From NCBI GenBank assembly GCA_965219585.1, contig CBDCOA010000003.1, positions 2,001,375 to 2,065,374 on the forward strand: a stretch of 64,000 nt of DNA, written 5' to 3'. This DNA is from Bryobacterales bacterium. Its GTDB lineage: Bacteria > Acidobacteriota > Terriglobia > Bryobacterales > UBA6623. This document shows, in pieces, positions 3,001 to 63,066 of this stretch (position 1 is its first letter; every line of letters starts with the position of its first letter). The notes under the pieces are model-generated. The model was not told where the DNA came from and searched no databases. It saw only the letters and a program-made list of their open reading frames with translations. The position numbers were made by a program, and so were the translations under genes.

Positions 3001-3800
3001 GGGAGTGATCCATAGCGTCGGGGTGATCGCCGACGCGTCACTGGCCAACCAAGACTGGGAGAGGTTCGAGCGCGTCCTGAGCCCCAAGGTTCTGGGCGCG
3101 TGGCAATTGCACAGGGCCACCGCTTCGAGAGACTTGGATCTCTTTATCCTTTTCTCAAGTGCGGCCGGCGTGCTCGGCAGCCCGGGCCAGGCCAACCACG
3201 CGGCGGCGAACGCTTTCTTGGACCACTTGGTACGCCACCGCCGTTCGATGGGCCTTTCCGGCCAGTCGATCGCGTGGGGCCCATGGTCGGAGATCGGCGA
3301 AGCGGCGGAGCAGCGGGACAGGCTTCACAGCCGCTTCAAGAGGCTCGGGATCGGCTGGATTGCGGCATCACGCGGAATGCGGGCCTTCTCGTGGCTGGTT
3401 CGACAGGACTTGCCGGCCAGCATGGCGGCTCCGGTGGACTGGCAACAATTCTCCGTGCATCTGAAGGACAGCCAGCTGCTAGGGGAGCTGCTCGCTGGCA
3501 CCCAGCGAGTGACCGGACTCGGAACACAGGCCGGCGACATGGTGTCACGCCTGCGGAATGCGCCAGAGGAAGAGCGCGTGCAGCTGCTGACAGCCCTGCT
3601 TCAGGCCGAGTCGCAGGCGGTGCTTGGCCTCCCCGCTCCTCCCGACCCGTCGGTGGGCTTCTTCGATCTGGGCATGGATTCGCTGATGGCCGTGGAACTG
3701 ACCAATCGGCTGAACCGAGCCTTGGCTGGCGAACACCATGCGTCCAGCAGCCTCGTGTTCGACCATCCTGACATCAACGCCCTGGCCCGCCACCTGACCG
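1..3800 (+). other. PKS module A (partial): cMT ~340-1115, psiKR ~1135-1780, ER ~1780-2730, KR ~2755-3460, ACP ~3570-3800
   Basis: cMT motif [12 protein letters not shown] starts at 578. ER has HAAAGGVG (~2190-2215) and RFVEIGK with the Lys codon aag at 2471-2473. KR has TGGLSGIG and QANHAAAN with His codon cac at 3197-3199. The ACP DSL Ser codon is at 3680-3682. Confidence 0.85.
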
Positions 3801-41600: not shown

Positions 41601-44600
41601 AGGGCGACGGCGGACCGGGACTTGGATCTGTTCGTGATGTTCTCGAGCATTGCTGGCGTGCTGGGGAATGCAGGTCAGGCGAACTACGCGGCGGCGAACG
41701 CGTTTCTGGACCAGTTGGCGCGGCACCGGCGGTCGGTGGGATTGGTCGGCCAAGCGATCGCGTGGGGGGCTTGGTCGGAAGTGGGCGAAGCAGAAGAGCG
41801 GCGTGCTCGGATCGCGCAGCAGTTGGCGGCGGCCGGCCTGGGCTGGATCACGCCGGAACGTGGCCTGCGTGTCTTCGACAAGCTGCTGCGGCAAGACTTG
41901 GTTGCCCCGGCAGCGGTCTCGATGGACTGGCAACGGTTCGCAGCCCTTCTGTCAGCGGACCAGCCCCTGCTGGACGAGCTTGTGGACTCCAAGCCCGTAG
42001 CAGAGGAGACAGCCCCAACGCTCGATCTCAGGAACCGTCTGCGAGAGGCGTCGCCCGGGGATCGCGAAGCCCTGCTAATGGAAATCGTGCAGGGCGAGGT
42101 CCAAGCGGTCCTGCAGCTTGCCTCACCCCCAGACCCGGCCGTCGGCTTCTTCGATCTCGGCATGGATTCGTTGATGGCGATTGAGCTGACGAACAGGTTG
42201 AACAGGTTGTTGACTGGCGAGTACCGGCTGGCTAACACCGCCGTGTTTGACCATGTCGACATCGCGAGCCTCGCACGACACCTGGCCGTGGAACTGCGTG
42301 TCGTTGAAGATGAGAGCCCGGAACCCGAACGGGCCGCGGCCCGCAGGCCGGAGGATGGCGGGATCGCTGTAGTCGGAATGGCGTGCAGGTTCCCGGGCGG
42401 GCAGGACCTGTTCAGGTTCTGGCAACAGCTCGAGGACGGGGGCAGCGCAATCACGGCGGAACGGCCAGGGGATCTCTGGGTCCATGCTGTCAGCGATTCC
42501 AAGGCGAGCTCTTCAGTCCGAGAAGCCGGTCGTTGGGGAGCGTTCATCGACGGGATCGACCAGTTCGATCCCGGCTTCTTCCGGATCACACCGATCGAGG
42601 CAGAGGGGATCGATCCGCAGCACCGGCTGCTGTTGGAGACAAGCTGGCACGCGCTAGAAGACGCAGGGATTAATCCCGGCTCTCTGCGTGGCCGCCGAGC
42701 CGGGGTTTTCGTGGGGATTTCAGGCAGCGAGTACAAGGATCTGATCCAGGCAAGCGAGAGCGACTTCTTCGATATCACGGCCCTGGAAGGGAACAGTACG
42801 AGCACTGGGGTCGGCCGCGTCGCGCACTTCCTCGGCCTCGAGGGTCCGGCAATGCCCGTGGACACGACGTGCTCTTCGTCGTTGGTGGCACTGCACCAGG
42901 CTTCGGCGGCACTGCGCTTGGGAGAAGCCGACCTGGCGCTGGCGGGGGGCGTGAACGCGATTCTCTCGAAGCGTGCGACCTACGGGATGGCCGGAGTGGG
43001 ACTGCTGTCGAATGACGGGCAGTGCAGGGCCTTCGATGCCTCGGCCAACGGATACGTGCGAGGAGAGGGCTGCGGCATGGTGGTCCTGAAGCGCCTGGCT
43101 GACGCAAAACGCGACGGGGACCCAATCTGGGCAGTGATCCGAGGATCGGCCGTGAACCACAACGGGGGCGGGGCGGGCCTGACCGTGCCGAACCTTGGGG
43201 CGCAGAGTCGGCTGCTCAGGGAAGCGCTCGCGAGCGCCGGGTTGGAGCCCCCCGACGTGGACTATCTTGAGGCACATGCGACGGGGTCGCTGCTTGGGGA
43301 CTCAGTCGAGTTGCAGGCCGCAGCCGAGGTGTACGGGGCGGGACGATCTTCCGACAGACCCCTGCTGCTGGGGTCCGTGAAGTCGAACATTGGGCACTTG
43401 GAGGCCGCTTCCGGCGTGGCTAGCCTGATCAAGGTTGTCCTAGCGATGCAGCGGCGGACCATTCCCAGGCACCTGCACTTCCGCGAGCCAAGCCCTGAGA
43501 TCGATTGGGGAAACTTGCCAGTGAAGGTCACGTCGGACGAAACTCCGTGGCTTTCGGCACAGCCTGGCTGCCCCTTGAGGGCAGGCATCAGTTCCTTCGG
43601 GCTCTCGGGCACAAACGCACACGTGCTCGTCGAGAGTTGCCAAACGACGGGCACCCATTCCGAGCGGGCGGCGCTCTCCGTGGCAGTCCCGATGCACTCT
43701 TCCGCGGGCTCAGAAACCACGGAGGGATCGTTCCGGGAGCGGGAGACAAGGCTGCTGCCGCTGTCGGGGCGGTCCGCGAGGGCGGTCCGCGACCTAGCCG
43801 GCCAATACTTGTCTTGGCTCGAACAGAATGCGGAGCGGCCAGCCGCGGAACACGAGGGTTCGGACCCGCCTGCCACCAGTGCAGACGCTGCCTCGCTGCT
43901 TGCGGACATGGCGTGGACGGCGGGAGTGGGCCGGAACCACTTTGGCCATCGGGTGGGATTGGTGTTCGGAAGTGCCGACGAACTGCGGGAAAGGTTGACA
44001 GCATTGGCAAGTGCGCGCGACGCCGCCCACTTTGCCGGACGTGCACCGAGTGTGGCATTTGTGTTTGCGGGCCAAGGCAGCCAGTGGCCAGCCATGGGGA
44101 GGGCACTCTACGAGAGAGAGCCAGACGGGCGGGCGATCTTGGAGCGCTGTGACCGGGTTATGCGGAAAGTGCGCGGGGTATCGCTGGTGGATGCGATGCT
44201 CGGTCGGCCAGGTGCCGCCGACGATCAGGGCGATCCGCTTTGGGCGGAACCGGGGCTGTACGCGGTGGAGTGTGCGCTGGCGGCCCTGTGGGAGAGGGTG
44301 GGGGTACGACCAGTCACGGTGCAGGGACACGGCGTGGGCGAGTTGGCGGCGGCCAAGGTTGCCGGAGTGTTCGGCCTGGAAGACGGCCTGCGACTCGCAG
44401 CGGCGCGGGGTGCGCTGAGTAGTTCCTTGCCCACAACAGGTCCGCGCGCCGGAACCCTCCTAGCCGTCTCCGCTCCCATGGAACGCTTGGAGACTGCCTT
44501 GGGCGCGCTGAATTCCGATTCAAGTCACGCTGGGCCGAGCGTGGTGTTGGATTCCGGGACACACCGCCTAGTCCATGGACCGGTGGCGGACATGGAACGG

Positions 44601-45158
44601 CTGGAAGCGCTGATCTCGGCTGAAGGGCTGCGGACGGAGAGGGTGAAGCCGGGGAGGGCTTCGCACGGCAGGTTGGCGGAAGCAGGACTCCATGAACTCG
44701 AATCGGCATTCCAAGGGACAAAGATGACGGTGCCGTCAGTGACCTTGGCCAGTTCGACCACCGGTCGCGATGTCGAGCCAGCCAAGCTGCTGGAGGCGAC
44801 GTACTGGCGACGCCAGGCTAGCGAGCCGGCAATCGACGGACGCAGTGCGGAGGCACCGCAGACACGGAAGGCGGGAATGGTCCTGGAGATCGGCTTCGAC
44901 GGGGACCCGCTGCGGGTCGTGGGCCAGGATTCGCCCAAGGCAGACACCAATGTCGACCCGGCACCTGAGCAGGGGATAAGCCTCCGGCAAGAATCTGGCA
45001 GTTCCAGCGGCTTTGCGACGGCGGTGGCCGCGGCGTACGAGGCTGGCGCGGCGCTCTCGTTCGAAGGGCTGTTCACCGGGGAGAGGCGCCGAAAGGTGCC
45101 GCTGCCGGGCTATCCGTTCCAGCGGGAGCGCTACTGGGTCACGCCCTCCAAGCATTAG
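11691..45158 (+). CDS. Giant type I modular polyketide synthase, 11,155 aa. Four complete KS-AT-DH-cMT-psiKR-ER-KR-ACP modules (C, D, E, F) followed by a terminal KS-AT(Ser->Gly) didomain with no ACP or TE.
   Basis: ATG at 11691 overlaps the gene 1 stop by 8 nt (gacgATGGATAAgt). One uninterrupted ORF runs to TAG at 45156-45158. The IA(I/V)[10 protein letters not shown] starts lie at 11784, 19482, 27099, 34734 and 42363. GHSVGE/HAFHS ATs, HxxxGxxxxP DHs, LE(V/I)GAGTG cMTs, TGGLAGIG KRs and GxDSL ACPs recur with about 7.6-kb period. Confidence 0.95.
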   Translation: MDKLTKYERLSRKLLAELNLRKEEIAQFRQPIAIVGMACRFPGGEGLASYWRQLEEGRCTVTEGRPGSVAGAPIVGSRPGSEAQDARRWGSFVREIDRFDADFFRIAPVEARLLDPQQRMLLETSWHALEEAGIDPSRLVETRTGVYAGISTSDYRALLAAGGEQDSGLYAVSGVSGSTAIGRVAFVLGLQGPAIAVDTACSSSLVALHQACVALQQGEADLALAGGVNAILAPSVTEATSKAGMLAPDGRCKTFDASANGFVRGEGCGIVVLKRLANAEADGDRIWAVIPGSAVNHDGASAGLTVPNGPAQEKVIAEALARAGLEPADVDYLEAHGTGTELGDPIEVHAASSAYGSGRRAGRPLLIGSVKTNIGHLESAAGVAGLIKVVLSMDRGVIPKHLHFRNPNPRIAWEHLPVEVTSEALPWPSFADRPWRAGLSSFGFSGTNAHMLIEAYGRPRGRSAQTKPSFSKRGLAVDVPVSLPAQAPALAAGQGPLAPREQRLLPLSGRSSKAVRELASRYLAWLQGRESEALGEEESQALLADMAWTAGLGRTHFDRRAGLVCGDLAELRSGLEEVVAGREIARAAQEPQVAFVFTGQGSQWAGMGRWLYEREPVARAVLDRCEQVMQELRGASLLDVMFGEPAAGSLDETEWTQPTLYALECALAAQWASVGVRPAAVLGHSVGEIAAAQAAGVFGLEDGLRFAAARGESMGSLPTEGPAAGAMLAVFAPQQRVAEALAEHNAGAAGAGLSLAADNGTHRVVSGPRAELEAIAEHFEPAGVRVAWLNTSHAFHSALMDPALADIEGALEAVALRSPAVPLVSNVAGRAMRAGEQLDGAYWRRQAREPVAFAAGVAALAEIGAEVVIEIGPQAVLGPLVEQAWPAGNAGGAESRPAVLGSLRREEGAAGGFAAAAAAAYEAGVAVSFEHLFAGESRRRVSLPVYPFQRERFWVDPLQRPTAGEGHALLGARRESARGGLTFETEMYSSAPAWLGDHRVFGMVVAPGALYGVLGVEVAASAAGEGAAVLEDLQLHEPLVWAQETPDGVAGGEGRSVQVFVDGDEGASPRVVEVYSRAGSEAAWQLHATARVLRGRADTGGAIDPKALREGLSSVDSADFYRGVAERGIEYGALFRGLAAVWSGPGEALGEVVLPPEADRGEMWLHPAQLDACFQVVGTTGGDDGDSAADTFMPFGWERLWLAGPLPDRVLCHARTRQARGAGGAGAEASEVQVVDLGLYDQQGMPLGGVSGLVLKRATRAALLSAVEGVDDLLYEVVWRERPQLGGPQSADFLAAPGVVGELRGSFAENLEAEGAALESWDDLLAGLAQLSQSYALAGMDALGWHRETGAIVEPEPLRRQLRVVADHRQLFRRLLEMLEQAGILQAQATESPSWVVTAGSGEPLPEGVAENPRALGAELLERHPAGSQELGLLMRCGDALADVLAGRVEPLELLFGGEDSGAAGLYHHSPGMRAANRTLGAAVGLLAAGLPERRRLRVLEVGAGTGSATAQALQTLPKGRFEYLYTDISAGFFAEAEERFGAEHAGIDYRVLDIEADPEVLGLDAHGHDLIIAANVLHATRDLEKTLENCRRLLAPAGLLVALETFRPQEWMDLTFGLLEGWWRFSDRYRSEHAMAGEAAWRQALKDAGFGDAEVLQGCVGDVVWQGVIVARGPLEVDEAPGLWVLAGNGSELVQELAGRLATRNQTVVVAGPGTRPEASPHARITSADVDPAKREAWRALLEGLPADARLRGVVHLGALDERGNAVTAAELAECTARIGKSALALVQGLQDAGAEPLDGLWFVTRGGQVVKRDQGGELAGATLWGLGKAVALEAHQLRPRMVDLDPREPEPLGRLVDELLHADRETHVAHRGAARYAARLARSAGTGRLGLPGEPGWRLARPAGGELDALGIEPAGLAAPGAGEIRVAVAAAGLSLHDVLIAMGTVDQASPLGTEFCGRVVAIGPGVTAVSVGDRVIGLAAGAYGPEVVTSQELVAKAPGEFPAAALATIPAAFVTAALALELGGLEAGQRVLVHTGAGDVGLAAIQLARAAGAAVFATASTEKLAHLRSLGVEQVFDSQPAAFGQEVLAVTAGAGVEMVLSSLTGPGFIEASLTCLAQGGRFVEIAGRDTWSAEQMAEARPDVGYHTLAVDRLVSEEPERVGAHLRVVAQGMENGALVPLPHSAWPLAEAGGAMEYFRSERPVGKAVLTLPRLVTGGLREDGTYLITGGLAGIGLLAAGWLADNGARWIVLNGRREPGPEAEAAIAGLRERGVEVRVELADVADSAAVDGMLERIGATMPPLAGAIHSAGVLADASLANQGWERFEKVMGPKVLGAWHLHRATLGRDLDLFVLFSSLTGVLGNAGQANHAAANAFLDQLARHRQSLGLPGQSIAWGPWSEVGEAEEQRSRIAERLAATGLGWIVPRRGMRALDRLLRQDVVSGTVLSVDWPRFGSRLPARQSLLEELVAPRAAAQSAAAKVDLVERLRTVPAREREGLLAGFLQGELQAVLRLASPPEVTSGFFDLGMDSLMAVELRNRLNRAFRGEYKASSTAVFDFPDIKSLAEHLAAELGETEAASTERERPVPAQALEGGIAIVGMACRFPGARDLSEFWDELEGAGWAVTPGRQGSAVGPTEDDFPESLGEHDARRWGAFVDEIDQFDAEFFRIAPVEAELLDPQQRLLLETSWLALEEAGIDPGRLKGGRSGVYAGIYTNDYSELIDRAGRRTTDLYVATGNSASTAIGRVAFALGLEGPAMAIDTACSSSLVAVHQAAVALQRGEADLALAGGVNAILTTTGSELLAKGGLLAPDGRCKTFDGSADGFVRGEGCGVVVLKRLREAEADGDRIWAVIRGSAVNQDGASAGLTVPNGPAQERVIGDALARAGLEPAEVDYLEAHGTGTELGDPIEVQAAAAVYGRGRAPDRPLLMGSVKTNIGHLEAAAGIAGLIKVALSMERGVLPRHLHFEKPSPRIDWDALPVEVAAEARRWPATPGRPVRAGVSSFGLSGTNSHVVLEAPDRDGKGPRDRAATAESESGGSRERLLPLSGRSPRAVRELAGRYLSWLRDRDGEASGEQESRSLLADMAWTAGLGRSHFDHRAGLVCADLAELRSGLEAVVAGREIARAAHGPQVAFVFTGQGSQWGGMGRWLYEREPVARAVLERCEQAMQELRGASLLDVMFGRPGAAGDLDDTGWTQPALYALECALAAQWASVGVRPAAVLGHSVGEIAAAHVAGVFGLEDGLRFAAARGESMGSLPVEGEASGAMLAVFAPQQRVAEALAEHGGGAAETGLGVAAENGTHRVVSGPRAALEALAERFELAGVRVARLNTSHAFHSALMDPALDTIEGALEAVELGTPAVPLVSNVTGRALRAGERMDGAYWRRQAREPVAFAAGVAALAEIGAGLVVEIGPQAVLGPLVEQAWPAGNGGGSGSKPAVLASLRREEGAAGGFAAAAAAAYEAGAAVHFEGLFAGESRRRMSLPGYPFQRERFWVEPPKRRIAGGGHALLGVRHEAARGGVTFETEMYSSDPAWLEEHRVFGMVVAPGALYGVMGVEVAATQSGAGAAALEDLQLHEPLVWDQARPDGAAGGDGRSVQVFVDGAAGSSGRVFEVYSRGGAESAWRLHATARVRRGQADTGRAIDPQSLRTGLSGVDSTDFYQSIAERGIEYGPLFRGLAAVWTGPGEALGEVVLPPEAGRDGMWMHPAQLDACFQVVGAAGRDSGESGADTYIPFGWERLWLSGPLPGQLLCHARTREAGHAAGAGSEAAQTLVADLDLYDQRGMPLGGVSGLVLKRATRAALLSAVEGVDDLLYELVWRERPRIGGPQSADFLAAPAAVRGLAGSFAEWLAAGGVPLASWTALEGGLEQLSRSYAMAALEALGWRRRKGSVVDPSRLRRQLKVVADHRKLFSRLLGMLAEAGLLQARAADLPGWSVAVGAREDLPEDLVEPRELARLLRERHAHGSVELGLVMRCGEALADVLRGRVDPRELLGGDHAGAQGVYRDAPAMRAVHRMMGATVGALVAGLPEQRRLQVLEIGAGTGSATAEVLAALPEGRFDYFYTDILAGCFPEARERFGAAIECRVLDIEEDLAIQGLEAHRYDLVVAANVLHATRDLGKALENCRKLLAPAGQLVTLEAFQAAAWRDLTFGLAEEWWWSSDRYRGECPLVGASVWRQALADAGFGEAEVLEGAVEDAVWHGVIVARGPLEVEQDPGLWVLAGDASPAVWELAEKLAASNQAVIVAGQAEERDSAQPAGVTTAYVDPTRREAWRALLGDPPAEAPLRGVVHLGALEGRGAAAATPELAQDVARIGASALALVQGLQDAQAKLLDGVWFVTRGGQAVERERGGQVAGSALWGLGKTVGLEAPQLRARMVDLDPRLPLQLDALVSELLHADPETHIAHRGATRHAARLVRGPRTGRLRLPEEAGWRLARDAAGALDALRVEPASLAAPGAGEIRASVTAAGLDFHDVLFAMGIADLQSELGAEFCGHVTETGTGVTAVSVGDRVVGLAAGAFGPEVVTSEELVARAPAGLSAAALATVPTAFLTAARGFELAGLEAGDSVLVHAGAGAVGMAAIRLAQAAGAVVIATASDSKGAYAQSLGVEHVFEGQATAFAQKVLDVTGGAGVAIVLNGAAGPDCVEASLSCLARDGRFVETVRDGSWSSEQMAAARPDVAYHAPAIDQLLVDEPGQIGTQLRALMRRMEAGELEPPLYSAWPVAEAGAAMELLRSGRTEGKLALMLPPLASGGLREDGTYLVTGGLAGIGRLAAGWLADSGARWIVLNGRREPDAEARAAIASLRERGVDVRTELADVTDPAAVDAMLERIEATMPALAGVIHSAGVISDASLANQDWERFEGVLGPKVLGAWHLHRATANRDLDLFVLFSSIAGVLGNPGQANYAAANAFLDQLARHRRSLGLAGQSIAWGPWSVTGQAEELRSRLAEGMAAGGVGWIRPRRGLRALDRLVRQDVVNGTVLSVDWPQFASRLPVTLPQLEELVAAGPAAQDRAAKTDLAERLRAVPAGEREGLLSGFLQAEVQSVLRLASPPDPTAGFFDLGMDSLMAVELRNRLNRELGGEYKASSTAMFDFPDIKSLAGHLAAELGEIEPAPIERKRPLPAQGLDGGIAIVGMACRFPGAQDLPGFWRELEAAECAVTPGRQNSTVGPTDEDVEGLLGEDDARRWGAFVEEIDKFDAEFFRIAPVEAELLDPQQRLLLETSWLALEEAGIDPGRLKGGRTGVYAGILSNDYSELIDRAGRTTSDLYVATGNAGSTAIGRVAFALGLEGPAMAVDTACSSSLVAVHQAVVALERGEADLALAGGVNAILTSTGNELLAKGGMLAADGRCKTFDASANGYVRGEGCGVVVLKRLQEAQADGDRIWAVIRGSAVNQDGASAGLTVPNGPAQERVIGEALARAGLEPADVDYLEAHGTGTELGDPIEVQAAAAAYGPGRAPDRPLLMGSVKTNIGHLEAAAGVAGLIKVALSMEHGVLPRHLHFEKPSPRIDWDALPVEVTAEARRWPTTPGRPVRAGVSSFGFSGTNSHVVLEAPDRNGKGPVDRSATAESESGGSRERLLPLSGRSPRAVRELAGRYLSWLRDRDGEASGEQESRSLLADMAWTAGLGRSHFDHRAGLVCADLAELRSGLEAVVAGREIARAAHGPQVAFVFTGQGSQWGGMGRWLYEREPVARAVLERCEQAMQELRGASLLDVMFGRPGAAGDLDDTGWTQPALYALECALAAQWASVGVRPAAVLGHSVGEIAAAHVAGVFGLEDGLRFAAARGESMGSLPVEGEASGAMLAVFAPQQRVAEALAEHGGGAAETGLGVAAENGTHRVVSGPRAALEALAERFELAGVRVARLNTSHAFHSALMDPALDTIEGALEAVELGTPAVPLVSNVTGRALREGERMDGAYWRRQAREPVAFAAGVAALAEIGAGLVVEIGPQAVLGPLVEQAWPAGNGGGSGSRPAVLASLRREEGAAGGFAAAAAAAYEAGAAVHFEGLFAGESRRRVSLPGYPFQRERFWVEPPKRRIAGGGHALLGTRRDMVGGEVTFETQMFASAPEWLGDYSVLGLIVVPGSLYGAAAVETAGAMPGMAGVVVEDLHVQVPMHFAGEDGHSEPDDRGKTVQVVVKDTEESAARRMELYSQGPEDTWTLHAAARLGRPADRVDLPAAVDIEARRSGLSPKSAPDIYRGLAATGIEYGEALRSVEAVWSSQGEAVAEIALPGGLEPMGSWLHPAQIEGFFQLAALLANDTEGARPGALIPSGWERLWLVGPLPERLVCCARMRASNGVGLQRAGDSGAQVADLDLYDPRGMPLGGVSGLALKPTTRAALLSAAGGVEDLLYEVVWREQPWVSGLQSAGFLAAPSAAGELRGTFIEKLEAEGAVLESWEELLGGLAQVSRSYALAGMEALGWHRETGAIVEPEPLRRQLRVVADHQHLFRRLLGMLEKAGVLQARETESPSWVVTVGSGEPLPEGVAQNPRALAEGFLERHPSGSHEMSLLMRCGDALADLLAGRVEPLELLFGGEFAGLADLYHHSPGMRAANRMLGAAVGLLAAGLPEGRRLRVLEVGAGTGSATAEALKALPAGRFEYLFTDLSAGFFAEAEERFGATDAGIEYRVLNIEAAPEGLGLPAHRHDVIIAANVLHATRDLAKTLENCRRLLAPAGLLLALETFRPQEWMDLTFGALEGWSRFSDQYRSEHAMADEGVWRQALADTGFGEVEVLEGGVGDVVWQGVLVARGPLEVADTPGLWVLAGNGSAAAQELAGRLATRNQTVIVAGQGTMPEASQHARITAADMDPAKREAWRALLEGLPAEARLRGVVHLGALNEQGNAVTTAKLAECTTRIGESALALVQGLQDAGAEPLDGLWFVTRGGQVVKRDQGGELAGAMLWGLGKAVAMEADQLRPRMVDLDPREPEPMDRLVDELLHADRETHVAHRGAARFAARLVSSARTGRLGLPGEPGWRLTRDTGGAPDALRVESAGLAAPGPGEVRVAVAAAGLNSHDVLIAMGISDQHSPLGTEFCGQVTSTGAGVTEVSAGDRVVGLASGAFGPEVLASEELVAKAPDGFPAAALAAIPAAFVTAELALELGGLEAGHRVLVHAREGDVGLAAVQLARAAGAEVLATASTDMLAYLRSLGVEHVFDSQATDLGQEVLAATAGAGVGMVLNSLAEPGFIEASLACLEQGGRFVEIAGRDTWSAERMAEARPDVGYHVLALDRLASDEPARVGTQLRSAVRRMGARKLEPLPHSAWPLAEAGAAMEYFRSERPVGKVVLTLPRLATGGLREDGTYLVTGGLAGIGLLAADWLADCGARWVVLNGRQEPDAEAKPAIEALRKLGVEVRVEVTDVTDSAAVDGMLERIERTMPPLAGVIHSAGVLADATLANQGWERFERVIGPKVLGAWHLHTATAGRDLDFFVLFSSIAGVLGNAGQANHAAANAFLDQLAWHRRSMGLAGQSIAWGPWSEVGEAEEQRARIAERLAASGVGWIVPRRGLRVLDSLVRRDVVCATVLSVDWSQFASHLPATLPLLRELVAPRAGGRGVAAKVDLVERLRAVSARERERLLAGFLQGEVQAVLRLASPPEVTSGFFDLGLDSLMAVELGNRLNRAFGGEYKPTSTEVFDFPDIKSLAGHLAAAFGEIEEAPAGPERPVPTLGQEGGIAIVGMACRFPGARDLSAFWDELAGAGCAVTPGRQGSSVGPSEGDFPEQVGEQDARRWGAFVDEIDLFDAEFFRIAPVEAEVLDPQQRILLETSWLALEEAGIDPGRLRGGRTGVYVGIATNDYSEVIERGGRRTGDLYVATGNSGSTAIGRVAFSLGLEGPAMAVDTACSSSLVALHQGVAALERGEADLVLAGGVNAILTPTSTELLAKGGMLAPDGVCKAFDAAANGFVRGEGCGVVVLKRLREAEADGDRIWAVIRGSAVNQDGASAGLTVPNGPAQERVIGQALARAGLEPAEVDYLEAHGTGTELGDPIEVRAAAAAYGRGRAANRPLLMGSVKTNIGHLETAAGIAGLIKVVLSMEHGMLPKHLHCRQLNPRIDWDALPVEVTTEARPWPASPDRPVRAGVSSFGFSGTNSHVVLEAPESHRRGHGPLMPIAAAQAGTGGPPEPRGKRLLPLSGKSSLAVRELAGRYLSWLESRGGVLGQGEESESLLADMAWTAGAGRSHFEHRASVVFGDLSELRAALEELAADREIARAAQEPQVAFVFTGQGSQWAGMGRWLYEREPVAQAVLDRCEKVMQELRGASLLEVMFGQPGAAGDLDDTGWTQPALYALECALAAQWASVGLSPVAVLGHSVGEIAAAQVAGVFELEDGLRFAAARGELMGSLPVDGPEAGAMLAVFASPQRVSQALEEHAAGDDGSGLSLAAENGTHRVVSGPLEEVETLAKRFEQAGVRVARLNTSHAFHSTLMDPVLDDIEEALEAVTLGSPAVALVSNVTGRAVREGERLDGAYWRRQAREPVAFAAGVQALAEIGVDVVVEIGPQAILGPLVEQAWPAESSDGAVSGPRVVESLRREAGGANGFSAAVAGAYEAGAAISFEGLFAGEIRRRVPLPGYPFQRKRFWIEQGKRKVTEEGHALLGARRDSARGGMAFETDLHATDPAWLADHRVFGMVVAPGALYGVLGVEAAATTGGTDAVVLQDLQLHEPMIWLEEPEDGPPAGEGRTVQVFVDGAEGSSGRLFEVYSQGSGETAWQLHATARVERGEAGTPEAIGLGALRETLSRVDSTDFYRSIRRRGIVHGPAFQGLAAIWSGPGEAIGEVVLSSQAGPGRLWMHPAQLDACFQVVVATVRDAEEFDSDTYMPIGWERMWLAGPVPERMFCHARLLERPDAGTPGPGPAEVLVAELGLYDMQGAALGGVRGLVLKRATRAALVSAIEGVEDLLYETAWRKQPRAGRQRAADLPAAQAGLEQLRGSFAESLASEGVPPEAWSALHEDLDRLARSYAMAGLEALGWRREKGAVVDLSLAQEQLKVVGDHRRLFGRMLAMLAEAGVLQAEAEGTPGWAVAVGADDDLPEGLASEPGAVGARLLERHAHGAHELGVLIRCGETLADVLRGHADPLEVLSGPEGAGLADIYRHAPGMRAANRMVGKTVAALVAGLPKGRPLRVLEIGAGTGSTTAEVLAVLPAGRFSYVCTDSSQSCLAETEARFGAGVESRVLDIEADPAGQGLEPHRYDLVIAADVLHATRDLGKTLEHCRRLLAPAGHLVVLESLRPQAWRDLTFGLMEGWWRFADPYRDDQALAGASAWRQALEESGFGDVEVLESGAEDTAWQGVIVARGQFEAEEEPGVWVLAGGASALAQELAEKLETRNQAVVLARHDTDQLAGVTTAYVDPTRREAWSSLLADLRSEAPLRGVVHLGALEGHGATATTPELAQDMARIGEGALALLQGLQDVGAEPLEGMWFVTRGGQVVERERGGQLAGATLWGLARAVALEAPQLRLRMVDLDPRAPLQADSLLDELLDADRETLVAHRGATRHAARLVRAARTGRLRLPEEAGWRLAPGTGGSLDDLRVEPAGLPAPGEGKIRASVSAAGLNFYDVLSAMGVVDLYNPLGAEFCGRVIAIGPGVTSVAVGDRVAGLAAGAFGPEVVTSEELVAKSRSGLPAAALATVPTTFLTAAIAFELAGLQAGDRVLVHAGAGGVGLAAIRLAQAGGAEVIATASSWKRPYLRSLGVQHVFDSRTTAFGEKVLAVTGGAGVEVVLNSLTGPGFIEASLACLGQGGRFVEIAKRDIFSAEQMAAARPDVDYHILALDQLVIDEPERVGTQLRALMDRIDSKDLEPLPHSAWPLAEASAAMEHMRSARHVGKIVLTLPSLASGGLRGNGTYLVTGGLAGIGRLAATWLADNGARWIVLNGRREPDSEAGAAIAALRERGVTVQVELADVTDSAALDSMLERVEAAMPPLAGVIHSAGVIADASLTNQDWGGFERVLEPKVLGAWHLHRATADRDLDLFVMFSSIAGVLGNAGQANYAAANAFLDQLARHRRSVGLVGQAIAWGAWSEVGEAEERRARIAQQLAAAGLGWITPERGLRVFDKLLRQDLVAPAAVSMDWQRFAALLSADQPLLDELVDSKPVAEETAPTLDLRNRLREASPGDREALLMEIVQGEVQAVLQLASPPDPAVGFFDLGMDSLMAIELTNRLNRLLTGEYRLANTAVFDHVDIASLARHLAVELRVVEDESPEPERAAARRPEDGGIAVVGMACRFPGGQDLFRFWQQLEDGGSAITAERPGDLWVHAVSDSKASSSVREAGRWGAFIDGIDQFDPGFFRITPIEAEGIDPQHRLLLETSWHALEDAGINPGSLRGRRAGVFVGISGSEYKDLIQASESDFFDITALEGNSTSTGVGRVAHFLGLEGPAMPVDTTCSSSLVALHQASAALRLGEADLALAGGVNAILSKRATYGMAGVGLLSNDGQCRAFDASANGYVRGEGCGMVVLKRLADAKRDGDPIWAVIRGSAVNHNGGGAGLTVPNLGAQSRLLREALASAGLEPPDVDYLEAHATGSLLGDSVELQAAAEVYGAGRSSDRPLLLGSVKSNIGHLEAASGVASLIKVVLAMQRRTIPRHLHFREPSPEIDWGNLPVKVTSDETPWLSAQPGCPLRAGISSFGLSGTNAHVLVESCQTTGTHSERAALSVAVPMHSSAGSETTEGSFRERETRLLPLSGRSARAVRDLAGQYLSWLEQNAERPAAEHEGSDPPATSADAASLLADMAWTAGVGRNHFGHRVGLVFGSADELRERLTALASARDAAHFAGRAPSVAFVFAGQGSQWPAMGRALYEREPDGRAILERCDRVMRKVRGVSLVDAMLGRPGAADDQGDPLWAEPGLYAVECALAALWERVGVRPVTVQGHGVGELAAAKVAGVFGLEDGLRLAAARGALSSSLPTTGPRAGTLLAVSAPMERLETALGALNSDSSHAGPSVVLDSGTHRLVHGPVADMERLEALISAEGLRTERVKPGRASHGRLAEAGLHELESAFQGTKMTVPSVTLASSTTGRDVEPAKLLEATYWRRQASEPAIDGRSAEAPQTRKAGMVLEIGFDGDPLRVVGQDSPKADTNVDPAPEQGISLRQESGSSSGFATAVAAAYEAGAALSFEGLFTGERRRKVPLPGYPFQRERYWVTPSKH
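11784..19410 (+). other. PKS module C: KS 11784-13060, AT 13467-14555, DH 14585-15480, cMT 15945-16725, psiKR 16745-17380, ER(degenerate) 17385-18335, KR 18363-19060, ACP 19180-19410
   Basis: AT has GHSVGE and HAFHS. DH has DHRVFGMVVAP and AQLDACFQ. ER reads HTGAGDVG and RFVEIAG (Gly 18078-18080 at the Lys position). KR reads QANHAAAN (cac 18804-18806). ACP Ser is at 19287-19289. Confidence 0.85.
19482..27030 (+). other. PKS module D: KS 19482-20755, AT 21096-22190, DH 22215-23100, cMT 23565-24335, psiKR 24355-25000, ER(degenerate) 25005-25950, KR 25981-26680, ACP 26800-27030
   Basis: DH has EHRVFGMVVAP and AQLDACFQ. ER reads HAGAGAVG and RFVETVRD, with no Lys. KR has the canonical QANYAAAN (tac 26421-26423). 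ACP Ser is at 26904-26906. Confidence 0.85.
20800..22235 (+). repeat. AT-domain repeat, copy 1 (module D KS-AT linker + AT + post-AT linker)
   Basis: Copy 2 lies exactly 7617 nt downstream. 20800-21805 is identical by direct reading. The supplied track confirms this: shadow ORFs 20809..21240, 20882..21694 and 21109..21705 translate identically to 28426..28857, 28499..29311 and 28726..29322. 21806-22235 differs by roughly a dozen substitutions. Confidence 0.9.
27099..34665 (+). other. PKS module E: KS 27099-28372, AT 28713-29807, DH0 29832-30720, cMT 31190-31970, psiKR 31990-32625, ER(degenerate) 32630-33585, KR 33615-34310, ACP 34435-34665
   Basis: The DH motif reads WLGDYSVLGLIVVPG, with Tyr codon tac 29931-29933 where the other modules have His. 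It also reads AQIEGFFQ, with Glu 30453-30455 where the others have Asp. ER reads HAREGDVG and RFVEIAG. KR reads QANHAAAN (cac 34056-34058). ACP reads GLDSL (Ser 34539-34541). Confidence 0.85.
28417..29852 (+). repeat. AT-domain repeat, copy 2 (module E)
   Basis: See copy 1. Identity decays upstream of ~28417 (KS region about 90% at protein level) and ends abruptly after HALLG at 29852, where the divergent module E DH begins. Confidence 0.9.
34734..42300 (+). other. PKS module F: KS 34734-36010, AT 36366-37455, DH 37488-38360, cMT 38840-39610, psiKR 39630-40255, ER 40260-41212, KR 41243-41940, ACP 42065-42300
   Basis: DH has DHRVFGMVVAP and AQLDACFQ. ER has HAGAGGVG (~40679-40703) and RFVEIAK with Lys codon 40959-40961. 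KR has QANYAAAN (tac 41685-41687). ACP Ser is at 42168-42170. This is the only complete module in which every reductive motif is canonical. Confidence 0.85.
42363..45158 (+). other. Terminal KS-AT0 didomain: KS 42363-43635, AT-like 44052-45155. No ACP, TE, reductase or condensation domain follows.
   Basis: KS has VDTTCSSS, EAHATGS and SNIGHLEAASG, so Cys/His/His are present. The AT-like region has GQGSQW but reads VQGHGVGE, with Gly codon ggc at 44331-44333 at the active-site Ser position, and RASHG where the other modules have HAFHS. The ORF stops right after the post-AT linker YPFQRERYWVTPSKH. Confidence 0.85.
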
Positions 45159-45782
45159 CGGTTGCGAACTCAAGGGAATCTCGATGGTGGATCGCACGTC
45201 AGGAGATCGTATAGGCCAACTGCGGTACCTTGGAACAGCACGGAGTTGCTCGAACGCAGCTGGTCGGGAGGCTTCGGTCAGGCTGGCTAGTCCTAGCCCA
45301 CGGCCTGCGAGCAGCGGTGACGCCAGCGGCCGCCGGTGGCATCTGGCATTCGCCAGCCAAATTCAACACCAGAAGCCCGGACGTACGAGTCCGACACGAC
45401 CGAGACCGACTGGCGGCGTGATGCTGGAAGCACCCCATGGCAGCCGGGCAGTTGTCGTGCGAGATGGCGCAGGGAGCCTGCTCCTACCATGCCGGAGCGT
45501 CAATCCGCACCGCGCTGGCTCGCCAAGGGTTTCCGTTGAGGTGGCTGCAGGCGTTCGCTCTGGGATGAGTGCGCATCGGGCTGATTGGGCCACTAGACCC
45601 GGCATTGACCGCGACCCAATCCGCCAGCAAACCCTCTGCTGCCGTCCGTCTTGTGCAACGGACTACTCGCGAGGAGTTCAGCCCGCTTCCGCAGCAGCCT
45701 TGAGCGCTTCTGCGGACTGGCCAGGTTCGGAGGCAATGGCAGTGCAAGGCGAGCTGAAGCGGCTGCTAGGTGTCGTGTAGCC

Positions 45783-46931
45783 ATGAGTGAACCTCTCGTC
45801 TCGGGCAGCACTGCGGACCGTCGCCAACCGTCCGGGGTGCCAAGCCTCTCATATATGTTCCCGTTCATTCCGCCCAAGGTGTGGATTCGACTGCTTTGGG
45901 AACACAACGGATCACAACTTCGTCATTGGCCTCACTTAGCACAGCAGCTTCTGACCAGCATCCTGGCGAGCCCCTTGAAGTGGGCCGAGCGCATTCAATT
46001 CGACCAACGGATTGCCAGAACACCGATCGAGGAGGCCCCGCTGACGATTCTGGGCCTCCCACGCAGTGGGACTACTCACTTGCACAACTTGCTCGCTCAA
46101 GATCCAAGGCACGGGTTCGTCTCCACGTTTCAAGCGATTGCACCGGAGTGTTGTCTGAGCGGGGGAGAAACACTCCAACGGTGGGTTGCAAAGCATCTTC
46201 CAAGCAATCGACCAATGGACAGCGTAGAATTCGCACTGGAGCACCCACAAGAGGAAGAATTTGCGATAGCCAACTTGAGCCATATGTCGTTCTACCATGC
46301 AATGTGGTTCCCGAGACTCTCAACGGAATATTTTGGCAAGTATGTCCTTATGTATGGACTGAAATCCGAAGAATTCATCGAGTGGAGAAAAACCTATCTT
46401 GACGTCGTACGCAAGGCCCAATATTATTCCAAGAGGCGTCGAATCATACTCAAGAATCCGTTAAGCATTTTCAGAATACCTGCAATTCTCAAGATCTTCC
46501 CAAGCATGAAGTTCATCCACATTGTGAGGAATCCATTTCTGCTATACCAATCCTTGTGCAATGCAATGCGACAGCTCTCCTTTGGATTAGACTATTCGGA
46601 CAAAGAAATCGAGAACTTTGGCATCATGTACTATACGATCGGACTGAATTCATACCTCCAAGACCGTAAGCTGATTCCGTCAGGAAACTTGATTGAAGTG
46701 CGATATGAAGATCTAATTGCAAATCCAATTCCTGAACTTGAGCAGGTTTATACACAACTCGATCTCCGCGAATGGGAACAACACAAGGGTCACATTTCTG
46801 AATATATTCGCTCCATATCAGACTACAAGAAAAATCGTTACAAGATTAGCAAGTCAGCGATTGACCGGGTAAATGACGCTTGGGGTTTTGCGGTAAAGGA
46901 GTGGGGGTATAGCGCGCCAGAACCGCAGTAA
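45783..46931 (+). CDS. Stand-alone PAPS-dependent sulfotransferase (TPST-like / Sulfotransfer_3-type)
   Basis: The 5'-PSB loop is LGLPRSGTTHLHNLLAQDP. The 3'-PB segment is FPSMKFIHIVRNPFLLYQS, which fits the ...FPxAKFIhIVRdPxxxxxS pattern. Stop TAA is at 46929-46931. The start is uncertain: ATG 45783 or the in-frame ATG 45855 (MFPFIPPKVW), where the GC drop begins. The track ORF start at 45651 is an upstream extension with no support. Confidence 0.85.
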   Translation: MSEPLVSGSTADRRQPSGVPSLSYMFPFIPPKVWIRLLWEHNGSQLRHWPHLAQQLLTSILASPLKWAERIQFDQRIARTPIEEAPLTILGLPRSGTTHLHNLLAQDPRHGFVSTFQAIAPECCLSGGETLQRWVAKHLPSNRPMDSVEFALEHPQEEEFAIANLSHMSFYHAMWFPRLSTEYFGKYVLMYGLKSEEFIEWRKTYLDVVRKAQYYSKRRRIILKNPLSIFRIPAILKIFPSMKFIHIVRNPFLLYQSLCNAMRQLSFGLDYSDKEIENFGIMYYTIGLNSYLQDRKLIPSGNLIEVRYEDLIANPIPELEQVYTQLDLREWEQHKGHISEYIRSISDYKKNRYKISKSAIDRVNDAWGFAVKEWGYSAPEPQ

Positions 46932-47380
46932 GGGGCAGTTGTATCAGAAATGAGGCCCCGGGGCACATCGTACCACTTCGGGCACAGCGGCTTGGTCGCC
47001 GATCAGCAGAGGGCCGGCCGAGCGAGGAACACCAGCGGAGCGATTGGAGTTGAGGATCGAGGCTTGCTTGCGAATCCAGACAGACAAGTCGTTGGGCAAG
47101 GCAACCGTGCCTAGCGACAATTGTTCATGTCGGCGTGTTGCCTCATCTCCGGATGTTCTCTGGATTCCCATCGTCGGCAACTCGCTGTGAATGGAAAGGT
47201 CTTGGGGAAATTCTTGGGCACGGGTCGAAGTGCCGCGCCAAATCATCGACGGCGGGCGATTTGGAGAATTGCTCTTTCCACCACGCCGAGCGCTTCGTAC
47301 TGGCTCGAGGCCCTCGGAGAGCCCCGCTGTGCGGCCGCGTACGCCTGCCGGCTGACCGGGCGGCATGTTGATTGAGCCCA

Positions 47381-48769
47381 TCAATCAGCACTGAAACCGA
47401 TCCTGCTGAGGAAATCAGTGGTCAGGCGTGCACATTCCGCTGGCCGTTCAAGTTGGGCGAGATGAGTGGTGCCGGGGATCGACTCAAAGTCAACGGACTC
47501 GACATGGCTAAGGTCACACGGTGGCAGGAAATAGTGACGGATGCTTGGATCCGCACCGATCACCTTTGTCGGCAAAGGGAAGAACTCTACATCGACCATG
47601 CGCGAGAACGTGGGCATAGCAGCCAAGATCTGGGCCTCGTAATTGGGCGGGCACCGAAGTTCGAAGGCTCCGTCTGGCACATATCGGAGGGTAGTCCGCG
47701 CCATCAACTCCGCCACGTTCGGAACCAAGCGCTCCATTCCTGGCGAAGCGTTCATGAGCTTGACGAATTTCCATTCGCTTGGAAACAGACCGAGCCGATT
47801 GCGAGTTCTCATGGCCGCCTGCCGACATGCAGATTCGAAGATCCGGTGCTTGGACTCTGACGCACAGAAAGGTGGATCGAAACAGACGAGGGCTGAGAAC
47901 TCGCTCTCGAGGGACGGTGACAAGACCGCCGCTAAGCTCGAGACGGAATGAAAGACACCAGCTTTCGGATGCACGCCGAATGCCCGATCCACCGTCTGAC
48001 ACACTGCCTCCAAATCTCTGCGAAAGGAAGGAATGGTGTGGTGCGACCTCTCAGCCAGCGGGTTCGCGCCTTGATTTCGAAGGTCGAACAGCAACAGGTC
48101 GAACTTGTCGAGCAAAAGCGACCAGTACGGGAAATAGAGGTCTATAGCGAGACCGTTGCCCGAGCTCACCACTAGGCGTGGGCCGTCTGGATTCCCGTGC
48201 TGCCGCAACAGGATCACGGCGCCGTCTTGTAGCCGCAGCTCCTCGACCCGATGAGGCGAAGGCAATTCGAAGTGAGCGGTTGCCCCGCTTGGCAAATATG
48301 GCCTCACGACTGGTGCCCCCGGAAGCGCGATCCAAGAGCCAACAGGTCGCGACCCCGACGACTTAGCAGACCATTGCCGACCGTCGCAATCGACGTGCAA
48401 GCCTTGATTCCCATCGAGCAGTCGGCATGCAGCGGGCCGGCTCCCAGCTAGCCGAATTCTAGCAGCCTGCGGCAAGAGACTGAGTCCTGAAAGATGGCTG
48501 AGTTGCGCGACCGTGGACAGGCTCTGTCCACCGGGCCCGGCCCGCCGCCCATATGCACCGACTTCCTCGCGAGCGAACCGGGTGTCGACTTCAGGCTGAA
48601 TCCGCGGGTAACCCTCCACAGCCGCAAACACCATAGAGGTGTGACCGATGGCGAGCATTAGGACCGGCAAGTTCGACGATGACTTGAAAGTGCGGCTGCG
48701 CAGCTCGCAGCTGTGCGCCGCCGTTCCATAGAAGAGGAGGTTAGAATCACCCTGCGCGACACTGTGCAT
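47381..48769 (-). CDS. Alpha/beta-hydrolase fold protein (candidate thioesterase/esterase). The fold occupies the C-terminal ~300 aa (~47381-48310). The N-terminal ~150 codons of the ORF are of doubtful coding value.
   Basis: Motifs: the oxyanion-region strand PRLVVSSGNGLAIDLYFPYW...FDLRNQG; a nucleophile-elbow-like GVFHSVSS (Ser275 codon 47945-47947), aligned to GHSxGG; and a C-terminal ESIPGTTHLAQLERPAE with the catalytic-His context (His436 codon 47462-47464). There is no Met between codons ~45 and 320. GTG at 48307-48305 is a possible real start. Confidence 0.65.
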   Translation of the reverse strand: MHSVAQGDSNLLFYGTAAHSCELRSRTFKSSSNLPVLMLAIGHTSMVFAAVEGYPRIQPEVDTRFAREEVGAYGRRAGPGGQSLSTVAQLSHLSGLSLLPQAARIRLAGSRPAACRLLDGNQGLHVDCDGRQWSAKSSGSRPVGSWIALPGAPVVRPYLPSGATAHFELPSPHRVEELRLQDGAVILLRQHGNPDGPRLVVSSGNGLAIDLYFPYWSLLLDKFDLLLFDLRNQGANPLAERSHHTIPSFRRDLEAVCQTVDRAFGVHPKAGVFHSVSSLAAVLSPSLESEFSALVCFDPPFCASESKHRIFESACRQAAMRTRNRLGLFPSEWKFVKLMNASPGMERLVPNVAELMARTTLRYVPDGAFELRCPPNYEAQILAAMPTFSRMVDVEFFPLPTKVIGADPSIRHYFLPPCDLSHVESVDFESIPGTTHLAQLERPAECARLTTDFLSRIGFSAD

Positions 48770-49067
48770 GGAGGCCGGGCGGGCCGTTGGGTCCTAGCGA
48801 AGTTCACCCGCGATTGCTTCGCGCCTTTCGGCAGCGTCGAACTCGAACTTCCCTAGCGTGGCCCTATGCATGGGCCTCCGGAGTTTTTCTGATCAGCCTC
48901 TCACGCTCGTCCCAGACACGAATGTCGCGTCCGGACCGATGCGACCGAACCGACGCCGACTGTTGCGGCGTGGATGGCGAACCTCTCAGTTCGGCAGGCT
49001 GGTTGGTGGAGTCGACAAGCGTGCAGAGTTCGGGCCACTGAGCGGGGACTGGTGCTAGCATTTCGAT

Positions 49068-50402: not shown

Positions 50403-50641
50403 ACCCGCATTCGGACAGCTGCTAGCTTCGAGCTGGCGGGTCAGCTGGAGACCTCAGGCCCCATATCGGCATCAGCGCCGCAAACACTTCAGCGGTTGGG
50501 CGAACATGCAAGACCAAGGGCCCAATATCCCGGCCGCCTTATATATAATGGGCGCAGACCGCCGACGGCCCAGGCCTTCGGGCCAGCGGTGATCCGGTGA
50601 GTGAGTTGTCTGGAGCAAGCCGGCGCCCCGCAACTTCTGTA

Positions 50642-54408: not shown

Positions 54409-54508
54409 CGCCGAAGTCCTTCGGTCCGGGGCCTCGGTCAATCGTCGGGCAGCGGCTGCACGGCAGCCAAGCACCCAAGGGTTGCCGGCAAGCGTCACTC
54501 GCGGCGCA

Positions 54509-56983: not shown

Positions 56984-57110
56984 GGGAAGTTCCCTCCATC
57001 TTGGCCCGGGCATCCGCGCCCGAACTGCCAAGAGTCTACCGCAGCGCCGAGAGCCGCGGACTGCCATGCAAGTGTTGAGGGCTGTCCGGCTCGGTCGACC
57101 GAGCCGGCGG

Positions 57111-59330: not shown

Positions 59331-59431
59331 GGTAAAGCTCCGGCTCGCTGGCTCCCAGCAAGAAAACGGCCCGAGACCCCACGGGCCTCAGGCCGAATTA
59401 TAAGACGTGCGCCGCGCCGCGGCAACGGCAC

Positions 59432-60307: not shown

Positions 60308-60377
60308 TGTTCACTCCGTTGCCCGGGTCGCGACGACCGCCGGGCACTGCGCCCGGCGCCATGCCGCAAGCACTAGC

Positions 60378-60797: not shown

Positions 60798-60841
60798 GGT
60801 GAATGTCCTCCTGTTTGTTTGCGTGCTCGAGAGTCGCGGCG

Positions 60842-61324: not shown

Positions 61325-61441
61325 GCTGGTTACCTCGTTCCCGGGCGGTCGGTCGGCAGCGCGCCCTCCGGGGTCGCCGCCTCCCGACCGCTACACGATA
61401 CTACAGCCGGTCAATCCGCTGCGGCTTGCGCCCAGCGAACC

Positions 61442-62152: not shown

Positions 62153-62282
62153 GTTGCTTGTTTTTCCTCCTAAAGAGACAACGGAATCCGTTGACCAACT
62201 GTTCGTGTCGAGCCGTGCGGGCGGCGGCCTTCCGCCGCCCTTGCGGTCCGACTCCCCGGGGGGAGACTCTAGGACGCTAACC

Positions 62283-63032: not shown

Positions 63033-63066
63033 GGTTGCAAGTTCCTCCCAAGATACCTTGCCATAC

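Follow-up and report, generated by a model that had tools for sequence, protein, structure and literature searches.

The supA–E clusters were reportedly described by Fieseler et al. in 2007 and by Hochmuth et al. in 2010. Clusters of this type (sup, sponge symbiont ubiquitous polyketide synthase) have been proposed to be makers of methyl-branched fatty acids (PMC4245539, PMC3908369, PMC4210886), and SupE of the Aplysina clone pAPKS18 is a permease of the ∼557-residue class (PMC3908369). The Swf clusters combine SwfA, a polyketide synthase (PKS) resembling fatty acid synthases (FAS), with SwfB, a fusion of a thioester reductase and a sulfotransferase (ST), and the radical SAM protein SwfC (PMC3908369). 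Here we analyze a stretch of 64,000 nucleotides (the window) from a Bryobacterales bacterium (Acidobacteriota; assembly GCA_965219585.1, contig CBDCOA010000003.1, positions 2,001,375 to 2,065,374), in which a giant type I PKS is followed by a stand-alone ST and an α/β-hydrolase. The PKS open reading frame (ORF) of 11155 residues is followed, in order, by a 624-bp GC-rich spacer, the ST gene on the plus strand, the relic of a phosphopantetheinyl transferase (PPTase) gene, also on the plus strand, and the convergent hydrolase gene on the minus strand. The locus is a multi-module, acidobacterial, ST-equipped version of a cluster type that is known but whose function is still unsolved, and not a discrete-protein form of the curacin (CurM) system.

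Likened by architecture and description, and not by the SupA–E sequences, the PKS family of the window looks like the Sup type. Both use the reducing, methylating module KS-AT-DH-cMT-ER-KR-ACP (ketosynthase, acyltransferase, dehydratase, C-methyltransferase, enoylreductase, ketoreductase and acyl carrier protein), and the sponge loci that carry relatives of the window hydrolase share a permease gene with the sup clusters, for whose accessory-gene content we draw in part on general background. The name ‘Sup’ did not occur among the database matches or clusters of the hydrolase family, which are named only ‘alpha/beta hydrolase’. In contrast to the Sup enzymes, which have been called ‘monomodular’ (PMC4245539), the window PKS has at least six modules on two proteins. 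It also belongs to a Bryobacterales metagenome-assembled genome (MAG) from metagenomes that are not sponge-labelled, and differs from the sup clusters in that its PPTase is a pseudogene, one of its modules has a predicted inactive DH and ER (DH0/ER0) and an ST has been added; no small discrete ACP was found between 45100 and 64000 of the window, and no permease nearby. With the Swf system the locus has in common a FAS-like reducing PKS, a separately encoded ST and a predicted sulfated aliphatic product, and the subfamily of the window ST contains reductase–ST fusions of SwfB-like architecture. It departs from Swf in that the window ST stands without a reductase domain, that cMT domains and a KS-AT0 end (an AT without its nucleophile) mark the PKS, and that sulfation would fall on a secondary hydroxyl in mid-chain rather than on a reduced terminus. 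An earlier reading of the letters and ORFs of the window (the sequence-only reading) had stated that it knew of no discrete-protein version of such an arrangement; to call none described is too strong, as Swf pairs a FAS-like PKS with a separate reductase–ST (PMC3908369) and the sup-like clusters carry a separate hydrolase.

We put at roughly 50% the probability that the locus as a whole makes a sulfated polymethyl hydroxy-lipid that is off-loaded by the family hydrolase. The assembly line would build a polymethyl-branched chain in which module E (DH0/ER0) would leave one β-hydroxyl, to become a δ-hydroxyl after module F. The hydrolase, acting in trans, would take the completed chain off the last ACP, or off the Cys of the terminal KS, by hydrolysis or by transfer, and the ST would O-sulfonate the module E hydroxyl with 3′-phosphoadenosine 5′-phosphosulfate (PAPS), giving a sulfated polymethyl hydroxy-fatty acid (a sulfolipid) with the sulfate kept on the molecule. 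The steps of this proposal differ in strength: it is very likely that the hydrolase is a dedicated partner of the PKS, somewhat probable that the PKS product is the substrate of the ST, and a tentative suggestion that the module E δ-hydroxyl is its exact acceptor.

The terminus of the PKS places it in its family. In the last AT of ORF2 the motif GHGVGE replaces GHSxGE, and the protein stops 36 residues on, just past the post-AT linker (PLPGYPFQRERYWV). As the sequence-only reading had it, no thioesterase (TE) follows the terminal KS-AT of ORF2, and no ACP does either; the terminal KS retains its Cys, His and His. All visible PKS 3′ ends, from ∼30 independent loci, have the order …KR-ACP-KS-AT with a tail of 31–46 residues, and nearly all have another residue in place of the terminal AT Ser. 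Because the same ending recurs in ∼30 loci, a KS-AT0 end without ACP or TE is a hallmark of the family. Accidental truncation by insertion of the ST gene was considered as an explanation of the PKS end and rejected, since the same end and same-length tail occur in ∼30 loci that are free of the ST. The visible 5′ ends of the family begin KS(Cys→Ser)-AT-ACP. In the loading modules of the relatives (L018:10771–13770, L064:1829–4800 and L099:12803–16000; handles beginning with L denote loci compared with the window) the KS Cys is changed to Ser (DTASSSS), and the loading AT also lacks its Ser in L018 (GRGAGE) and L064 (GLGVGE); the L099 PKS starts differently, with ACP-KS(S)-AT(GHSAGE)-ACP. By its domain order, the window PKS represents, in multi-module form, a very widespread family consisting of a loading module, n × [KS-AT-DH-cMT-ER-KR-ACP] and a terminal KS-AT0, for which a saturated poly-α-methyl-branched acyl chain is the predicted product.

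Hidden Markov models (HMMs) made from the window's own domains were used for the PKS domain calls, and they delimit the six or more modules listed in Table 1. The stop codon of the first megasynthase gene and the start of the second share an overlap of 8 nt, suggesting that their translation is coupled. Extension ATs are of the malonyl type (GHSVGE…HAFH), and the methyl branches would thus come from the cMT domains. By motif reading, module F is fully reducing, with intact DH (HRVFG..P), ER (HAGAGGVG) and KR motifs. Both catalytic motifs of the module E DH are changed, His to Tyr and Asp to Glu, and it is the sole DH so changed among all examined; the NADPH motif of its ER departs from that of the other modules. 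Module E is the only module in which DH and ER are both dead by motifs, which bears out the earlier caveat that the last complete module is fully reducing and that module E is the sole source of a hydroxyl. The predicted chain is a saturated polymethyl acyl group with one hydroxyl, δ to the thioester after module F. At the position of the KR catalytic Tyr (YAAAN), 27 of 36 KR domains of the PKS family have His (QANHAAAN), including those of window modules A, B, C and E (e.g. module C, ∼18365–18900), with Tyr only in D and F; as a family norm this His looks odd for PKS ketoreductases. A two-module duplication among modules C–F found no support, pairwise identities being 67–76% without clear pairing.

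The hydrolase family is large, with >2800 homologues at E ≤ 1e-40 in a search with an Aplysina hydrolase. A scan of metagenomes with the hydrolase alignment gave 342 relatives, from which 80 loci were kept, many of them on the contig sets MKWU (Aplysina) and LXNI/LXNJ (Petrosia or Sarcotragus); these sets are sponge metagenomes of Aplysina aerophoba, Petrosia ficiformis and Sarcotragus foetidus (PMC5099237, PMC5649159). Where the locus spanned at least 8 kb, a type I PKS was present in 31 of 40 (hydrolase ∼39–61% identical) and the same PPTase family in 19 of 40. The 16 most distant hydrolase loci (≤40% identical) adjoin priA, fmt or sulfatase genes, and no PKS was found in them. Sponge metagenomes hold hydrolase homologues in very great number and variety, which also suits the sup clusters; the usual gene order there is PKS, often a small ACP, PPTase, hydrolase and permease, and the KS-AT0 terminus recurs throughout. 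Closer homologues (54–80% identity) in L015 and L016 are convergent with an Sfp/HetI-type PPTase gene and a Metallophos (calcineurin-like phosphoesterase) gene. Three complete genomes extend the pattern: L018 has the hydrolase, a 73-residue ACP and an ST, then a PKS of 9369 residues; L099 has the hydrolase, PPTase and Metallophos genes, then a PKS of 7980 residues; and L100 has the hydrolase, ACP, PPTase, Metallophos, ST and KS genes, then a PKS of 8579 residues. From this conserved synteny we infer that the hydrolase is the leading candidate for the off-loading function that the PKS lacks.

In five loci (L003:11281–12940, L015:3598–5246, L016:6450–8269, L099:10911–12484 and L100:4489–6050) the Metallophos gene, a frequent companion of the hydrolase gene, either overlaps the PPTase gene or lies directly against it. 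By gene pairing only, these head-to-tail genes beside the hydrolase recall the PptT/PptH pair of Mycobacterium tuberculosis, in which PptH is a phosphopantetheinyl hydrolase (PMC8557913); unlike that pair, the window has no Metallophos gene and its PPTase is a relic.

The hydrolase gene itself needed its start revised. Its ORF is open back to 48769 (47381–48769, 462 residues), and conservation with L003 is confined to 47381–∼48320 (88% of nucleotides, 84% of residues). The long ORF was rejected, as L003 does not conserve its first ∼150 residues, and the start was moved to GTG 48307, giving 308 residues, the length of the closest homologues. The convergent α/β-hydrolase that the sequence-only reading had placed at 47381–∼48310, with an HS..S elbow and a C-terminal His, is thereby upheld. 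Its elbow FHSVS, found instead of Gly-x-Ser-x-Gly, is typical of the whole family, and S132, D264 and H293 (numbered on the translation of window 47381–48340) are invariant in 18 sequences. In the AlphaFold model (pLDDT 75.6) the Ser follows the strand 126–130 at the elbow, the Asp follows 258–263 and the His follows 283–288, the canonical positions of the triad. No Pfam match at E ≤ 0.01 was obtained for the window ORF, and homologues carry PF12697; NCBIfam gave no informative family for either the ST or the hydrolase. The dN/dS ratio of the hydrolase, 0.19–0.23, indicates purifying selection. In a structure search the CurM TE (3qit) ranked 10 (E 9e-12, 16% identity) among >1000 generic α/β-hydrolase matches; generic esterases matched as well or better, and the CurM TE gave no sequence-level match to the hydrolase. 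As far as these searches reach, the hydrolase is no closer to the CurM TE than to esterases in general, 16% identity being too low for comparing active-site residues. The closest solved relatives by sequence are ZenA-type zearalenone lactonases (1.3e-8). The hydrolase does not conform to the type II editing thioesterase pattern (PF00975, ∼250 residues, GxSxG), having no such Pfam or NCBIfam match, a length of 308 residues, a lid and the FHSVS elbow.

The ST matches PF13469 (Sulfotransfer_3) at 1.5e-33 over positions 1–215 of the 216-position Pfam profile. Its 5′-phosphosulfate-binding (PSB) loop is GLPRSGTTH, with R94, G96, T97, T98 and H99 invariant in 27 homologues, as are R249 and S257 of the 3′-phosphate-binding (3′-PB) motif R249-x7-S257 (VRNPFLLYQS); the earlier description of a PAPS-type ST with both segments intact was therefore accurate. 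The mycobacterial Stf1 (2ZQ5) and Stf9 (2Z6V) are its best matches in sequence and structure, yet at only 17–18% identity; to our knowledge their acceptors are not established. In single-sequence searches Stf9 matched at 9e-13, Stf1 at 1e-9 and the olefin synthase (Ols) ST (4gox) at 0.18, with no match to the CurM ST. A profile of the ST family reached Stf9 at 9e-25 and Stf1 at 1e-19 over nearly the full length, and the Ols ST at 3e-9 and the CurM ST at 8e-8 over the C-terminal half only (positions ∼184–319). Foldseek searches with the ST model (pLDDT 86) gave 2z6v (Stf9) and 2zq5 (Stf1) as top matches (query-normalized TM score, TMq, 0.64 and 0.63), compared with TMq 0.37 (E 2e-5) for 4gbm and 0.36 (E 8e-5) for 4gox, the CurM/Ols STs, and TM ∼0.45 for the tyrosylprotein sulfotransferases.

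An exhaustive HMMER search found ST relatives at E ≤ 1e-30 in 840 cluster representatives, nearly all of them stand-alone proteins of ∼370 residues. The few long members are fusions: thioester reductase with ST, the SwfB architecture (P0534 and P0474; E ∼1e-54 to 1e-60), fatty-acid desaturase with ST (P0459) and ST with fatty-acid hydroxylase (P0427). A homologue of 41% identity (L013:8001–12864) is followed by a GPP34/P450 fusion, an ICMT-type methyltransferase, a type III PKS and an RND pump, in what is possibly a sulfated phenolic-lipid cluster. Given these fusion partners and the L013 neighbors, the predicted acceptors are lipid hydroxyls, and the window ST would be a lipid-hydroxyl sulfotransferase.

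The history of the ST can be read from its relatives. Genes on two Bryobacterales (Acidobacteriota) MAG contigs match it at 100% and 99% identity, and metagenome contigs of one sample series carry exact or near-exact copies. The PKS end, spacer and ST are collinear in three lineages that differ by 13–21% in DNA, with a spacer of ∼620 bp in each: relative to the window block, L003 has 87% nucleotide identity (ST 78% in amino acids) and L005 has 79% (ST 74%). Mean column identity of the spacer across the three ST-bearing lineages is 82%, in an alignment that also spans flanking coding sequence; the spacer gave no Pfam and no Rfam match, and a hidden gene or RNA was rejected, as gene callers disagree and there are indels and no coding pattern. 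On the 3′ side of the ST the three diverge. In the window come the PPTase relic and the hydrolase, in that order; L003 has a Metallophos gene, a frameshifted PPTase gene, an insertion sequence (IS) fragment of the IS1595 type and then the hydrolase; and L005 has unrelated genes, with no hydrolase near the ST. L007, near-identical to the window, has an ISAzo13-type transposase fragment between ST and hydrolase. The window's relic is 39% identical to the L016 PPTase over the last 69 residues, and is best read as a leftover of an ancestral hydrolase><PPTase<Metallophos cassette; the window lineage has lost the Metallophos gene that is seen in L003, L015 and L016. The lower GC of this patch, pointed out in the sequence-only reading, is borne out (0.46–0.49 over 46000–46999 and 0.57–0.60 over the hydrolase, vs 0.64–0.71 in the PKS), and GC at third codon positions (GC3) is 48–55% in the ST compared with 72–75% in the PKS. 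In sequence terms, the ST gene arrived later, by horizontal transfer, and was inserted between the PKS and the accessory cassette. With dN/dS of 0.17–0.22, it is retained under purifying selection.

The same survey separates ST from hydrolase. No ST of any kind was found in the 64 closer hydrolase loci, which are metagenomic and mostly from sponges. Because the hydrolase family adjoins the PKS without an ST in all 64, and L005 has the ST without a hydrolase, the hydrolase is not the partner of the ST. Hence the proposed tailoring and off-loading pair survives only in part: each enzyme is tied to the PKS (the ST in three lineages, the hydrolase in 31 of 40 loci), and they are not a pair.

An ST of another subfamily occurs in L018 and L100, with native GC (69%), a PSB loop reading GTGRCGST and only a remote relationship to the window ST. 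Its stop overlaps the start of the PKS or KS gene by 11 nt in both, and by this overlap it is translationally coupled to the PKS. STs of different subfamilies beside the same PKS family imply that the two were joined at least twice, and sulfation of the family's product seems to have been repeatedly selected for. We raise, with rather less than even confidence, the idea that Sup-like PKSs recruited STs twice independently, to make a class of sulfated polymethyl lipids not described so far.

Several observations weigh against the reading of the locus as a sulfolipid pathway with release by the hydrolase. The absence of any ST from the 64 closer loci counts against a tie between ST and PKS, as does the finding that ST homologues at ∼45% identity mostly have no PKS as a neighbor. 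The role of the hydrolase is deduced from synteny only, leaving editing thioesterase or acyltransferase as other conceivable functions; moreover, in the SHGNGLA motif after strand 3, in the oxyanion-hole region, the otherwise invariant His is replaced by Ser (SSGNGLA) in the window clade (window, P0122 and P0123). The hydroxyl acceptor derives from the motifs of a single module, window module E, the equivalent position lying outside the view in L003 and L005 and the rest of the PKS outside the view in L018 and L100. The KR of that module, like most in the family, has His for the catalytic Tyr, and its hydroxyl-forming activity is a prediction. The 624-bp spacer separates ST and PKS, a promoter and terminator scan of 45000–49200 gave nothing above chance, and co-transcription of the two is conjectural. 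Lastly, the window covers the 3′ end of the PKS locus, the cluster start lying outside it.

The strongest alternative is that the ST came on mobile DNA and sulfates an unrelated acceptor, its place beside the PKS being due to descent and not function. This agrees with its foreign composition (GC 46–49% in surroundings of 64–70%), with the transposase fragments that adjoin it in L007 and L003, with the degradation of the neighboring Metallophos and PPTase genes, with the fairly close relationship of the three ST-bearing lineages (79–87% nucleotide identity) and with the homologues at 41–46% identity, which lie in varied surroundings without a type I PKS. However, the low dN/dS indicates that the gene has been kept functional, and its position and spacer were kept while the downstream DNA was rearranged three ways. 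The fusion partners in its subfamily point to lipid hydroxyl acceptors, and in L018 and L100 it is another ST, of native GC, that is translationally coupled to a PKS of this family. We consider a passenger ST unlikely.

Alternatively, the hydrolase may form a δ-lactone with the module E hydroxyl, or pass the chain to a small ACP, a glycerolipid or a sugar, with the ST acting afterwards. The relationship to ZenA-type lactonases, the δ-hydroxyl predicted from module E, the small discrete ACP gene that adjoins the hydrolase gene in many relatives and the terminal KS, with an intact catalytic triad but no accompanying ACP, would all suit such chemistry. Nevertheless, the hydrolase is conserved in clusters in which every visible module has intact DH motifs, so that lactone formation is excluded as its general role; its fold matches are unspecific, and no small ACP was found in the stretch from 45100 to 64000. 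This possibility appears somewhat less likely still than a passenger ST. More improbable again is that sulfate on the δ-hydroxyl of the tethered chain serves as a leaving group, with release by the hydrolase or KS-AT0 coupled to loss of the sulfate through displacement or elimination and giving an inverted δ-lactone, a remote alkene or ring closure; if true, this would be trans-acting, discrete-protein sulfate activation at a remote position.

The analogy first drawn was with CurM and Ols, whose off-loading runs through KR-ACP-ST-TE and which resemble the window in having a PAPS-type ST and an α/β-hydrolase-fold enzyme at the end of a PKS, all of the STs being broadly Sulfotransfer_3-like, and which differ from it in that the window ST is Stf-like, that ST and hydrolase are discrete and not co-inherited and that no β-hydroxyacyl-ACP is predicted. 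A discrete-protein version of that logic, in which the ST makes a sulfate leaving group and the hydrolase releases the chain with elimination or decarboxylation to an alkene or another displacement product, is highly improbable and was rejected: although both enzymes adjoin a TE-less PKS, the hydrolase counts the CurM TE among its structural matches and the window ST is distantly related to those of CurM and Ols, the window ST is of the Stf1/Stf9 type by profile and fold, the hydrolase matches generic esterases at least as well as the CurM TE and accompanies its PKS family without an ST, and a fully reducing module F leaves no β-hydroxyl.

The sulfolipid proposed here has a mycobacterial parallel in theme. 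Sulfolipid-1 (Pks2) unites polymethyl-branched, partly hydroxylated acyl chains and a sulfate ester in one lipid. It shares polymethyl-branched chains and sulfate with the predicted window product; its sulfate, in contrast, is on trehalose and its methyls come from methylmalonyl-CoA, whereas those of the window product would come from cMT domains.

Table 1. Features of the PKS locus, in window coordinates
Feature	Position	Strand	Remarks
PKS ORF1	20..11698	+	truncated by window edge: ..cMT-ER-KR-ACP (module A), then KS-AT-DH-cMT-ER-KR-ACP (module B)
PKS ORF2	11691..45158	+	11155 aa; 4x KS-AT-DH-cMT-ER-KR-ACP (modules C-F) and terminal KS-AT0
Module E DH domain, predicted inactive	29838..30731	+	catalytic His->Tyr (LGDYSVLG), DxxxQ Asp->Glu
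Module E ER domain, NADPH motif broken	32709..33575	+	VLVHAREGDVG vs HAGAGGVG elsewhere
Terminal KS	42363..43481	+	Cys/His/His kept; motifs atypical (DTTCSSS, EAHATGS, NIGHL)
Terminal AT0	44058..45047	+	nucleophile Ser->Gly (GHGVGE); protein end 36 aa further
PKS-ST spacer, GC-rich	45159..45782	.	624 bp; kept in all three ST-bearing lineages; without consistent ORF
Stand-alone PAPS-type ST, Stf1/Stf9-like	45783..46931	+	382 aa; GC 48.7%, GC3 55%
Sfp/HetI-type PPTase gene relic	46956..47375	+	C-terminal part only, internal stop
α/β-hydrolase	47381..48307	-	308 aa from GTG 48307; Ser 47945-47947, Asp 47549-47551, His 47462-47464

Directly beyond the hydrolase gene lies a gene for a sulfite-oxidase-type molybdoenzyme (PF00174 and PF03404; 49068–50402, plus strand), followed by a PSCyt2/PSD1 gene (50597–52939) and a DUF1501 gene (52456–54408). 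The molybdoenzyme is a sulfur-oxyanion enzyme close to the ST, yet is perhaps an unrelated neighbor.

The PKS family to which the window belongs is among the most abundant in sponge and other metagenomes and, according to the literature cited above, neither its product nor its release mechanism has ever been shown. Throughout the family, the KS-AT0 terminus and a dedicated Ser-Asp-His hydrolase are defining features, and together they are the obvious candidates for off-loading. The locus also cautions that an ST and a hydrolase beside a PKS need not mean curacin-type chemistry. In the giant co-linear versions of the PKS, module motifs predict the product far better than in the presumed iterative sponge enzymes. 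Alkyl sulfates escape standard fatty-acid analysis (PMC3908369), and the two unrelated STs found on the family predict sulfated polymethyl lipids, a class that such analysis would miss.

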